From the IMG/VR virus record IMGVR_UViG_2585427970_000003: 51,664 nucleotides of DNA; one strand, written 5' to 3'. The DNA is from a virus. Lineage: Duplodnaviria; Heunggongvirae; Uroviricota; Caudoviricetes. Under the pieces are notes generated by a model, which was not told where the DNA came from, made no database searches, and saw only the letters and a program-made list of their open reading frames with translations. This document shows, in pieces, positions 10,188 to 13,890 of this stretch. The first letter of the stretch is position 1; each line of letters starts with the position of its first letter. A program made the position numbers and the translations under genes.

Positions 10188-10521
10188 ATACAGCGAACTC
10201 CATTGGTTTAGTTGGATATTTACTGTGCTGGACAAAAACGGTTTGCGGGGAAATCTTAGTTAAGTAGAATGACTGCGGGTGCTTGAGGCTATCTGCCTCG
10301 GGCATGGACACCAACGGCAGATAGAGAAAAGCCCCAGTTAACATTACGCGTCCTGCAAGACGCTTAACATTAATCTGAGGCCAATTTCATGCTAGACACA
10401 TGTAGGTTAGCCTCTTACGTGCCGAAAGGCACGGAGAAGCAGGCTATTGTTAACACCAAGCTGTAATGTCCCCTTTGAACCATTCTAAAATGTCCCCAGA
10501 CAATTCTCTGGGGGATTTTTC

Positions 10522-11835
10522 ATGATCAAAGAGACTGTTACGATGAGTCATAAGGAACTCCACCGACTTCAGATTATTCAGGAACAAGCTGCGGCACGCA
10601 TTGGCATTTCTATTCGGCAGGTTAAACGTCTGGTGCAACGGTATAGAAATGAAGGGCCTTCTGGTCTGGTTTCCCACCGACGTGGAAAGCGTCCTAATAA
10701 TTCCTTTTCTACTGAATTCAGAGCAACAGTAATTTCACTCCTCAAAGGCCGTTACGCTGATTTTGGACCTACGTTTGCGTGCGAAAAATTGCGCGAGATA
10801 CACGGTTTATCTTTATCCGTTGAAACTCTCAGAAAGTGGATGATAGAAGAGGGGTTATGGCGTGAACGCCGTCGTAAAATTGCCCGTATATATCAACGCC
10901 GCATGCGACGACCATCTTACGGTGAACTGATCCAGATTGATGGCTCACCTCATGACTGGTTTGAAAATCGAGGCCCCAGATGTACACTGATCGTTTTCAT
11001 TGATGATGCCACCAGTGCGTTGATGGCGTTGCGTTTTGTGCCTGCTGAAACAACCCGGGCTTACATGGAAACCCTCCGGGGTTACCTTAATGATCATGGC
11101 GTACCGCTCGCTCTCTACTCTGATAGACACAGTATATTCAGGGTAAATAACCCAGAGCGGGAAGGTGAGCTGACCCAGTTCACTCGTGCGATAAAGACAC
11201 TGGGCATCGAGCCAATCCATGCCAACAGCCCGCAGGCAAAAGGGCGGGTAGAGCGCGCCAATCAGACACTACAGGACAGGCTGGTCAAAGAAATGCGGCT
11301 TCAGAATATCAGTGATATTGAAACAGCAAATGCATGGTTGCCGACCTTTATTGAAGCCTATAACAACCGGTTCGCTACGTCGCCTCGTACTACTGATAAT
11401 GCTCATCTTGATGTGCACCATTCTGAAGAGGAACTGGGTTATATCTTCAGCCTACAGGCGAAGCGCGTTCTGTCTAAAAATCTCACTTTCCAGTACAAAA
11501 GCAGTGCGTTTCAGGTACGCAGTGAGGGCCGGGGATATCGACTTAGGCATTCGGTTGTTACTGTATGCGAGAACTTTGACGGTGAAATTAACGTTCTGTA
11601 TGACGGGAAAGCGCTGGGCTGGGAAAAGTATGTTGATGGCCCGGAGCCTATACCACTGGATGATGAAAAGAGTGTCCATGAACGAGTGGATAATGCCCGT
11701 ATTGATTTACGCTCAAAATACTATGTTAAACCTAAAGCTGACCATCCCTGGCTTACGCGCCGAACGCAAAGTCATCAGCAAGTTAAGCCCCCGAAGTTAC
11801 CTAAAAAGAAGCCTGATCCCGATAAAAAAGATTGA
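10522..11835 (+). CDS. DDE-type transposase / integrase-core-domain protein (IS481/ISNCY-like)
   Basis: 437 aa; N-terminal HTH, then catalytic-type motifs IQIDGS ... LYSDRHSIF ... KGRVERANQ, basic C-terminal tail. Element ends not resolved. Confidence 0.65.
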   Translation: MIKETVTMSHKELHRLQIIQEQAAARIGISIRQVKRLVQRYRNEGPSGLVSHRRGKRPNNSFSTEFRATVISLLKGRYADFGPTFACEKLREIHGLSLSVETLRKWMIEEGLWRERRRKIARIYQRRMRRPSYGELIQIDGSPHDWFENRGPRCTLIVFIDDATSALMALRFVPAETTRAYMETLRGYLNDHGVPLALYSDRHSIFRVNNPEREGELTQFTRAIKTLGIEPIHANSPQAKGRVERANQTLQDRLVKEMRLQNISDIETANAWLPTFIEAYNNRFATSPRTTDNAHLDVHHSEEELGYIFSLQAKRVLSKNLTFQYKSSAFQVRSEGRGYRLRHSVVTVCENFDGEINVLYDGKALGWEKYVDGPEPIPLDDEKSVHERVDNARIDLRSKYYVKPKADHPWLTRRTQSHQQVKPPKLPKKKPDPDKKD

Positions 11836-12271
11836 AACCAAGATCGATTCGGTTGAGTGCATATCCATTCATAGGGTAGATTCTTAAGTCGCGTTTCTGG
11901 TGTTCATTTTCGGGTGGTTTGTTACTTGTTTTACCGGGGATATGCCAGAAACGCGCTGAGTCAGTCTGGGCGGTGCGCGTAATGAGGCGTTATGGTAAAT
12001 AGCCTATGCTAATGTCCGCTAAGAGCAAGAAGCGGAAGTTGGCAGTTTTGTGGACTGTCCCCACAAAAGTGACTACAGAAATAGTTGCAATTCATAATTG
12101 ATCATGGGTTGTCAGTTAAACTCGTGGCGATTTAAATAGACTAATTGGGAGTGCGTCCATTACTTATATCTTGTAATGTTAACTATCAGAAATGATACAA
12201 AGATAATATGTCTTTAAAGAAAAGGCTGATGGCGAAAAGTGGCCCGATGAGGGCCACAATACGGCTGTCAC

Positions 12272-12604
12272 TTAGACGTAAATATCAATGGTGCCAGCGG
12301 TATTTGTATCGTCTTTTTTCTCTTCTTTTTTATCAGGCTGAACTGTCGCGTCTTCATTCTTTTTCTCTGCCTGCTGCCTTAACAACTGCTCCAGTTGAGC
12401 CCAGAGGCTTTCAATTTGCTTCTGTACCAATGCAGCCATTTCTTTTTTCTGCTGTGTCGTCATCCCCTCTTCCGATGAGATTTTCCCAAGCTTTTCAGTC
12501 AGCACCTGAATTTGTCTTGTGATTTTGGCTATTTCTGATGTTCCTTCCGGGGCGGAGTTGTTTGAAATAACGGTTGAGGTATTTCCCTGAATTGTGACAG
12601 ACAT
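12272..12604 (-). CDS. flxA: FlxA
   Basis: 110-aa MSVTIQGNTSTVISNNSAPEGTSEIAKITRQIQVLTEKLGK...; preceded by a sigma-28 consensus promoter. Confidence 0.8.
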   Translation of the reverse strand: MSVTIQGNTSTVISNNSAPEGTSEIAKITRQIQVLTEKLGKISSEEGMTTQQKKEMAALVQKQIESLWAQLEQLLRQQAEKKNEDATVQPDKKEEKKDDTNTAGTIDIYV

Positions 12605-12627
12605 AGATTTCTCCTTTTAAAAAAGCA

Positions 12628-12654
12628 CTATCGGCATGCACAAAAAAATCTTTA
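12628..12654 (-). promoter_or_regulatory. Sigma-28 (FliA) promoter for flxA
   Basis: Minus-strand TAAAGATT-N11-GCCGATAG versus consensus TAAAGTTT-N11-GCCGATAA, about 25 nt upstream of the flxA start. Confidence 0.7.
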
Positions 12655-12806
12655 ATCGTATTTCTTGTGTCATTAATTGTTTGATGTTCAGATTGTTTTC
12701 CTCGCGGGCTGGCGCGCCTCAGAAAGTAAAGCTTGTTGACAGGGGTAAACGTTCGGCAATAATTTTCTGCCGCATGCGGGTGTTGCATAAAACGTGTTAC
12801 GTTCCT

Positions 12807-13112
12807 TTATCGACAGGTCAGGTCACCGCTCACCCGCCGACGAGAAAGCAACACTGACATGCTAAAGCAAAAAATAGATGAATAAGTTGAGTTGTGCATA
12901 TGTAGCCTGACCGTCACAAAGTATATGGTGTCTGTACCAGTAAGATGATGGCCGGACTCTTTAAAAACGAGCTGACCTGCACAATACAGGATGGACTTAG
13001 CAATGGCTGCTCCTGGCACAAAGCGGACAGTGATCACCGTTCTTACGACTACTTTCTGACTTCCTTCGTGACTTGCCCTAAGCATGTTGTAGTGCGATAC
13101 TTGTAATGACAT
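12807..13112 (-). CDS. YdfV-like ORF (101 aa)
   Basis: Length and position between flxA and relB match the K-12 ydfV annotation; no recognisable motifs, may be non-coding. Confidence 0.25.
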   Translation of the reverse strand: MSLQVSHYNMLRASHEGSQKVVVRTVITVRFVPGAAIAKSILYCAGQLVFKESGHHLTGTDTIYFVTVRLHMHNSTYSSIFCFSMSVLLSRRRVSGDLTCR

Positions 13113-13124
13113 TTGTAATTACAA
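13101..13124. promoter_or_regulatory. relBE operator (relO-like palindrome)
   Basis: TTGTAATGACAT followed by perfect palindrome TTGTAATTACAA (13113..13124), just upstream of the relB start. Confidence 0.6.
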
Positions 13125-13136
13125 GAGGTGTAAGAC

Positions 13137-13376
13137 ATGGGTAGCATTAACCTGCGTATTGACGATGAACTTAAAGCGCGTTCTTACGCCGCGCTTGAAA
13201 AAATGGGTGTAACTCCTTCTGAAGCGCTTCGTCTCATGCTCGAGTATATCGCTGACAATGAACGCTTGCCGTTCAAACAGACACTCCTGAGTGATGAAGA
13301 TGCTGAACTTGTGGAGATAGTGAAAGAACGGCTTCGTAATCCTAAGCCAGTACGTGTGACGCTGGATGAACTCTGA
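13137..13376 (+). CDS. relB: RelB antitoxin
   Basis: 79 aa MGSINLRIDDELKARSYAALEKMGVTPSEALRLMLEYIADNERLPFK... Confidence 0.9.
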   Translation: MGSINLRIDDELKARSYAALEKMGVTPSEALRLMLEYIADNERLPFKQTLLSDEDAELVEIVKERLRNPKPVRVTLDEL

Positions 13377-13663
13377 TGGCGTATTTTCTGGATTTTGACG
13401 AGCGGGCACTAAAGGAATGGCGAAAGCTGGGCTCGACGGTACGTGAACAGTTGAAAAAGAAGCTGGTTGAAGTACTTGAGTCACCCCGGATTGAAGCAAA
13501 CAAGCTCCGTGGTATGCCTGATTGTTACAAGATTAAGCTCCGGTCTTCAGGCTATCGCCTTGTATACCAGGTTATAGACGAGAAAGTTGTCGTTTTCGTG
13601 ATTTCTGTTGGGAAAAGAGAACGCTCGGAAGTATATAGCGAGGCGGTCAAACGCATTCTCTGA
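13376..13663 (+). CDS. relE: RelE mRNA interferase toxin
   Basis: 95 aa MAYFLDFDERALKEWRKLGSTVREQLKKKLVEVLESPRIEANKLRGM...; start overlaps relB stop (TGATG). Confidence 0.9.
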   Translation: MAYFLDFDERALKEWRKLGSTVREQLKKKLVEVLESPRIEANKLRGMPDCYKIKLRSSGYRLVYQVIDEKVVVFVISVGKRERSEVYSEAVKRIL

Positions 13664-13734
13664 ACCAAAGCATGACATCTCTGTTTCGCACCGAAGGTGA
13701 CACTTCTGCTTTGCGTTGACAGGAGAAGCAGGCT

Positions 13735-13890
13735 ATGAAGCAGCAAAAGGCGATGTTAATCGCCCTGATCGTCATCTGTTTAACCGTCATAGTGACGGCA
13801 CTGGTAACGAGGAAAGACCTCTGCGAGGTACGAATCCGAACCGGCCAGACGGAGGTCGCTGTCTTCACAGCTTACGAACCTGAGGAGTAA
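13735..13890 (+). CDS. hokD: HokD (RelF) Hok-family membrane toxin
   Basis: Manual translation MKQQKAMLIALIVICLTVIVTALVTRKDLCEVRIRTGQTEVAVFTAYEPEE (51 aa, below ORF-track cutoff). Confidence 0.85.
   Translation: MKQQKAMLIALIVICLTVIVTALVTRKDLCEVRIRTGQTEVAVFTAYEPEE

Follow-up and report, generated by a model that had tools for sequence, protein, structure and literature searches.

The window analysed here, a stretch of 51,664 nucleotides from a Caudoviricetes virus, carries the gene flxA within a Qin-type lambdoid prophage. A preliminary description had placed a near-consensus sigma-28 promoter directly upstream of this gene and concluded that a prophage gene is wired to the host flagellar regulon. 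This raises two questions, namely whether the site is a promoter read by FliA, and whether the wiring originated in the phage. The locus as a whole is best explained if the site is flxAp, a flagellar promoter of the class 3 type that is read by FliA, and if both the cassette and its wiring were inherited (probability about 0.95).

The flxA promoter and its predicted transcript

Reading of the minus strand and a pattern search bore out the near-consensus motif at 12628..12654, with 14 of 16 positions agreeing with the consensus TAAAGTTT-N11-GCCGATAA and with correct spacing. Its position upstream of flxA was confirmed as well: the end of the -10 box lies 23 nt before the ATG (12604), the orientation is correct, and the open reading frame is that of FlxA, as judged from its Pfam family (PF14282) and its identity to the K-12 gene. 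On the minus strand the order is ...ACGAT-TAAAGATT-TTTTTGTGCAT-GCCGATAG-TGCTTTTTTAAAAGGAGAAATCT-ATG, and the features of the gene and its surroundings are as follows.

12647..12654, minus strand: -35 element TAAAGATT of flxAp (7/8 match to TAAAGTTT)
12636..12646, minus strand: spacer TTTTTGTGCAT between the flxAp boxes, 11 nt
12628..12635, minus strand: -10 element GCCGATAG of flxAp (7/8 match to GCCGATAA)
12618..12621, minus strand: predicted transcription start zone, placed 7-10 nt 3' of the -10 box from the usual sigma-28 geometry
12611..12616, minus strand: Shine-Dalgarno sequence AAGGAG of flxA, 6 nt 5' of the ATG
12272..12604, minus strand: coding sequence of flxA with its stop codon, 110 aa (open reading frame; Pfam PF14282; K-12 identity; phrog_11044)
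12235..12257, minus strand: probable intrinsic terminator of flxA, GUGGCCC-UCAUC-GGGCCAC-UUUU (folding energy -17.3 kcal/mol, z = -2.3)

By sequence, the -35 box, the -10 box, the 11-nt spacer, the strand and the nearness to the gene are those of a sigma-28 promoter of the class 3 type. The site was the only one in the 51.7-kb window with at most 2 mismatches to the FliA consensus. At this threshold 0.02 sites are expected per window, and 2 of 100 shuffled sequences contained any such site. Since the chance expectation reaches 0.49 per window when up to 3 mismatches are allowed, the significance of flxAp comes from its two-mismatch quality.

RNA polymerase containing FliA (sigma-28) recognises TAAAGATT as the -35 and GCCGATAG as the -10 element, 11 nt apart. 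Sigma-28 transcripts usually start about 7-10 nt downstream of the -10 box, and transcription of flxA would begin at that distance, near 12621-12618; the start near 12620 that had first been proposed is a geometrically reasonable prediction. The predicted mRNA would be short and monocistronic (about 385 nt, of which about 15 nt are leader), would bear the strong ribosome-binding site and the 110 codons of flxA, and would stop at the hairpin 12257-12235. This hairpin has a 7-bp GC stem followed by UUUU, and it was missed by the consensus scan because its U-run is only 4 U long. Until assembly of the hook-basal body is complete, the anti-sigma factor FlgM blocks FliA, so that flxA is expressed late, together with the flagellin and chemotaxis genes. 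When FliA is missing, flxA is essentially silent.

The two boxes and the 11-nt spacing of flxAp are those of the E. coli class 3 promoters of tar, fliC, flgMN, fliD and motA. The -35 element TAAAGATT is identical to that of the K-12 flgMN promoter (PMC4183435), and the -10 element departs from GCCGATAA only at the last base. In contrast to these promoters, flxAp serves a gene that lies on mobile DNA and has no obvious role in flagellar synthesis or motility.

The transposon that carries flxA

The promoter and the gene form a self-contained cassette within an ISEsa1-type transposon, which has inserted into the prophage next to hokD (start of the open reading frame, 13735). The following features were assigned to the element and its flanks.

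10277..10448, plus strand: hok/sok leader, matched over the full model by Rfam sok RF01794 (104 bits; gathering score 59)
10433..10447, no strand: left target-site duplication of 15 bp, GGAGAAGCAGGCTAT (perfect direct repeat, spacing 3289)
10448..13721, plus strand: ISEsa1-type (IS1202-family) transposon of 3,274 bp with transposase, flxA, 'ydfV' and relBE (28-bp inverted ends, 15-bp duplication)
10522..11835, plus strand: ISNCY/IS1202-family transposase, 437 aa (NF033594, 456 bits, cut-off 250)
12001..13006, no strand: replaceable middle of the transposon, with the flxA cassette and most of the 'ydfV' open reading frame (missing from variant elements)
12807..13112, minus strand: 'ydfV' open reading frame, a doubtful gene, crossing from the variable middle into the conserved right arm at about 13007
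13137..13663, plus strand: relB-relE toxin-antitoxin pair in the right arm (RelB 1e-32; ParE_toxin 2.2e-13; K-12 annotation)
13722..13736, no strand: right target-site duplication, with the ribosome-binding site and the initial AT of the hokD start codon

The ends of the element are TGTTAACACCAAGCTGTAATGTCCCCTT and, reverse-complemented, TGTCAACGCAAAGCAGAAGTGTCACCTT, which match at 21 of 28 positions. The transposase is annotated at NCBI as 'IS1202-like element ISEsa1 family transposase'. The element thus combines a transposase of the IS1202 family, terminal inverted repeats and target duplications that differ between independent insertion sites, as is expected for a member of that family. The hok/sok leader stops at the left junction, and the transposon severs it from hokD. 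Base composition revealed no distinct island.

Copies of the 3.27-3.30-kb unit (3,274-3,301 bp) with at least 99.2% identity were found on plasmids of Enterobacter asburiae, E. roggenkampii, E. cloacae and E. kobei, and equally similar ones on a Salmonella IncI plasmid and on E. coli plasmids. In all plasmid copies whose flanks were read, the transposon abuts a Hok/Gef or DUF5431 gene. The target duplication is GGAGAAGCAGGCTAT in the window and in phage PhiR42_1, TGGAGGGGCTATGAT in the Salmonella IncI plasmid (with near-identical junctions in an E. coli IncI1 plasmid) and GGAGAAGAAGGCCAT in an Enterobacter IncF plasmid. Three distinct 15-bp duplications at three insertion sites show that these were independent insertions.

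PhiR42_1 (PV340562.1), an Escherichia phage with a complete lambdoid genome of 48.7 kb, was the sole carrier of FlxA among 50,697 phage records; its layout, transposon and duplication are as in the window. The transposon is therefore carried by an apparently complete Qin-type phage. The K-12 locus of flxA (b1566) in the Qin cryptic prophage is the same base for base over flxA, its promoter and 'ydfV'. It differs from the window in that only the right transposon end is kept, whereas the element of the window is complete, with transposase and left end present; nothing else differs.

Variant elements on plasmids of Citrobacter and Enterobacter hormaechei share 10392-12000 (89.5%) and 13007-13739 (99%) with the window, but not the middle, and have other cargo or none between the two arms. 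Since the variants share both arms and differ between them, flxA with its promoter and terminator occupies a replaceable slot. The 'ydfV' open reading frame matched no Pfam, PHROG or NCBIfam family and straddles the junction at about 13007, for which reasons it may be a chance open reading frame rather than a gene. Taken together, it is well supported that flxA is transposon cargo and not a native phage gene.

The catalogued ISEsa1 of the IS1202 family (Harmer and Hall 2023; PMC10132070) has a related transposase and the same left end as the element in the window. It was described as 1609 bp long, with terminal repeats matching at 15 of 22 positions and with no target duplication detected (PMC10132070). 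In contrast, the unit found here measures 3,274-3,301 bp, has inverted repeats matching at 21 of 28 positions and 15-bp duplications, and includes flxA and relBE. The absence of a duplication fits if the true right end lies past relBE. This suggests that the catalogued 1609-bp ISEsa1 is the left part of a longer transposon with cargo and a toxin-antitoxin pair.

Three further observations concern the element and its relatives. On the Enterobacter hormaechei plasmid NZ_CP085771.1 (3672-3767), the right end (past relBE), 15 bp of sequence GGAGAAGAAGGCCTG and the left end (before the transposase) follow each other head to tail, resembling either a tandem pair or a circle-junction-like form of the element. 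Just inside the left end, at 10455-10497, two subterminal direct repeats ACCAnnCTnnAATGTCCCC were observed, and these could be transposase-binding sites; a third sequence, TGTCCCCA, occurs at 12056-12068, about where the catalogued ISEsa1 would end. Finally, in the Edwardsiella plasmids NZ_MF925337.1 and NZ_CP090964.1 the flxA-ydfV-relBE part is present (about 99% identity) and the transposase arm is missing, which places the sigma-28 cassette in a distant enterobacterial genus.

In some respects flxA resembles a phage moron: it likewise has its own promoter and terminator, serves no phage function and is expressed from a prophage under host control. The term fits only loosely, because flxA did not come as a bare insert between phage genes but as cargo of a transposon that is also found on plasmids.

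The FlxA family and the origin of its promoter

The open reading frame matched Pfam PF14282 with 53.8 bits (cut-off 26.3; E 2.3e-14; model positions 2-96 of 101) and belongs to phrog_11044, a PHROG family of unknown function. Common to proteins of the family are an N-terminus rich in Ser, a coiled coil rich in Q and, at the C-terminus, a (Q)IDIY(I/V) tail; the GVNxP motif preceding this tail was lost in the mobile E. coli type. An AlphaFold model of FlxA built with 45 sequences (mean pLDDT 67) predicted two helices, residues 20-42 and 50-87, that form a hairpin, with both ends of the protein disordered. A fold search with this model gave no match better than E = 0.88, a sequence-profile search of the PDB returned designed coiled coils only, and NCBIfam gave no match.

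Of 301 genomes from the same GTDB family, representing 178 genera, 110 contained Pfam FlxA, and these belong to 64 genera. The 300 nt upstream of each FlxA-like gene were scanned with the sigma-28 consensus, allowing spacers of 10-12 nt. Among the anonymous genomes, 48 of 55 loci had a site with at most 4 mismatches, against 4 of 165 controls taken from antisense and downstream stretches. The named loci gave 78 of 80 at the same threshold against 8 of 240 controls, and in 77 of the 80 the -10 box had 0-1 mismatch; the two samples overlap in some genomes. The 80 loci came from a search seeded with a tighter FlxA alignment, the broad alignment being too diverse. They represent Enterobacter, Citrobacter, Kosakonia, Buttiauxella, Pantoea, Atlantibacter, Scandinavium, Pseudescherichia, Lelliottia, Leclercia, Cedecea, Dryocola, Sodalis, Acerihabitans, Mixta, Trabulsiella and Phytobacter, plus one Salmonella. 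The gap between the -10 box and the ATG was mostly 22-35 nt in the family, a range that includes the gap found in the window.

The chromosomal genes occupy a fixed site: 76 of the 80 named loci adjoin a yfeR-like LysR gene, a yfeH-like SBF transporter gene and/or ligA, and neither a transposase gene nor relBE was found near any of the 80, which span more than 20 genera. Two other genomes of the genus Escherichia also have a FlxA-like copy at the yfeR/yfeH/ligA site. The chromosomal type shares with flxA the Pfam family, a similar size, the helical-hairpin core, the (Q)IDIY(I/V) tail and the sigma-28 promoter. It differs in its -35 box, which is usually TCAAG and not TAAAG, and in its fixed chromosomal location free of mobile-element genes.

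At the protein level, the FlxA of the window is only 25-42% identical to the chromosomal type. In its nearer relatives (86%, 62% and 57%) the boxes are kept and the spacers differ. The copy of about 86-87% identity, from another Escherichia species, has four changes in the promoter region, which fall on three spacer positions and the last -35 base; its -10 box and leader are unchanged. A locus search with the single FlxA protein returned E. coli only, and a search for a donor of the mobile type returned only one MAG and one small Citrobacter contig.

These results make it well supported that the sigma-28 promoter belongs to the FlxA family and was not invented in a phage. Because the promoter is common to a family that is chromosomal in most genera, the wiring is no phage innovation, and the presence of the same promoter before FlxA-family genes across enterobacteria indicates that it was inherited together with flxA. 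It could be supposed instead that the promoter arose in the prophage as a phage adaptation that rewired a phage gene to the flagellar regulon, given that flxA sits in a Qin-type lambdoid prophage, that the complete phage PhiR42_1 has the gene in the same layout and that FlxA matches a PHROG family. Such an origin is very improbable: FlxA is limited to that single phage record, the transposon around the gene is also present on IncI/IncF plasmids at other hok-type sites, and its relatives are chromosomal, at conserved positions beside LysR, SBF transporter or ligase genes, with the sigma-28 motif already in front of nearly all of them (78/80). Thus, of the statement that a prophage gene is wired to the host flagellar regulon, the wiring stands, as FliA control has been published, but it does so without a phage origin; the words 'prophage gene' are loose because flxA is the cargo of a transposon inserted into the prophage.

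FliA control of flxA and its wider meaning

The stretch 12150-12900 (751 bp, flxA-ydfV) was found to be 100% identical at the DNA level to E. coli K-12 MG1655, and of 5,426 complete E. coli genomes, 1,204 contain it with an identity of at least 99%. In the K-12 annotation, the match falls in the Qin prophage segment ydfW-flxA-ydfV-relB-relE-hokD-rem. The published experiments on the K-12 promoter concern the identical sequence. The identical 28-mer TAAAGATTTTTTTGTGCATGCCGATAGT is listed as a FliA ChIP-seq site at flxA (FAT 16) in Table 2 of Fitzgerald et al. (2014; PMC4183435), who also measured flxA expression at 280 in motile MG1655 and at 2 once fliA was deleted, a significant difference. 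A 28.4-fold decrease of flxA in a fliA deletion and an 8.2-fold increase five minutes after FliA induction were obtained by Zhao et al. (2007; PMC1935009). In vitro, the ydfV/flxA spacer was bound by the RpoF holoenzyme alone in genomic SELEX, with an intensity of 23.2 (Shimada et al. 2017; PMC5493296). In addition, flxA expression goes up and down with the flagellar genes in unrelated transcriptomes.

The proposed sigma-28 identity of the promoter is thus supported by FliA binding and by fliA-deletion data on the identical sequence. For the same reason the finding is already known: the original report of the flxA promoter is that of Ide and Kutsukake (1997, Gene 199:19-23), as cited in PMC4183435, and genome-wide reconfirmation followed in 2014. 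According to the title of the 1997 report, as given in the same paper, a role of flxA in flagellar synthesis or motility is not obvious, and Fitzgerald et al. (2014; PMC4183435) count flxA among the few well-characterised FliA promoters that lack an obvious flagellar function. In this sense flxAp and its FliA dependence are an ordinary feature.

In the nearest E. coli genome available, the consensus gave 9 sites with at most 2 mismatches and the reversed pattern gave 3. Of the nine, four (tar, fliC, ycgR and fliD) equal or nearly equal published FliA-bound promoters, the strings of tar, fliC and ycgR being the published ones and that of fliD near-identical. A fifth is the flxA site of this genome itself, with one spacer base changed. 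The gene fliA lies next to fliC and fliD. Its match (G001:C1:3826989-3827696) is split into pieces in differing frames, in a genome with an estimated completeness of 44%; this probably reflects an error-rich assembly and not a real fliA defect.

Upstream of flxAp, a further promoter was found by the consensus scan.

12736..12763, plus strand: divergent sigma-70-type promoter TTGACA-16-AATAAT (11/12 matches), back to back with flxAp

This promoter is directed towards relBE and runs antisense to 'ydfV'. The relB-unit start reported at K-12 position 1,644,259 on the minus strand (Cho 2014, supplement) maps to about 12774 on the plus strand, 11 nt past it.

The same supplement (Cho 2014) lists a flxA start at K-12 position 1,644,170, associated with sigma-70/sigma-S, which maps to about 12863 on the minus strand, inside 'ydfV' and about 259 nt upstream of the ATG; a FliA-type start for flxA is absent from it. 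In the supplementary text of the Cappable-seq and SMRT-Cappable-seq studies, neither flxA nor the expected coordinates were found. A second, weak and FliA-independent flxA promoter may therefore exist upstream. A stronger version, in which the sigma-28 match plays a minor part and most flxA transcription comes from this sigma-70/sigma-S promoter or reads through from 'ydfV', is very improbable, since the fall of expression from 280 to 2, which leaves little room for any upstream promoter, and the 28-fold decrease in the second study together leave almost nothing for it in motile cells. Poor motility is common among MG1655 stocks and would account for the missing FliA-type start in the Cho 2014 dataset. 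The preferred reading remains that flxAp is a FliA promoter; that its motif is a functionless chance match has a negligible probability, for although 0.49 sites per window would be expected at 3 mismatches, only 0.02 are expected at the 2 observed, the position and strand are right, the motif is kept across the FlxA family, and the published binding and regulation of flxA by FliA (ChIP-seq and deletion data) refute it.

By itself flxAp adds nothing new, and it is its genomic context that may merit a short note. No description of flxA as transposon cargo, nor of a sigma-28 promoter throughout its family, was found in the literature searched. The mobility of the flxA unit and the conservation of its promoter are direct observations. 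A broader picture can be drawn from them only speculatively, and as a whole it is rather unlikely: the unit would be a portable module of the flagellar regulon, derived from an old chromosomal family of late flagellar genes (beside yfeR/ligA in more than 20 genera), one branch of which was captured with its promoter and terminator as replaceable cargo of an ISEsa1-type transposon that targets hok gene starts on phages and plasmids. Recipients would express FlxA through their own FliA, and the protein, with its disordered N-terminus, hairpin and tail, would serve the flagellar export apparatus as a late substrate or a modulator; this last role is pure hypothesis.

It follows from the context that flxA, long cited as a prophage gene under FliA control without an obvious flagellar function, is a transposon passenger from a widespread chromosomal family. 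The near-universal sigma-28 promoter in this family points to FlxA as a conserved and unstudied late protein of the flagellar regulon.
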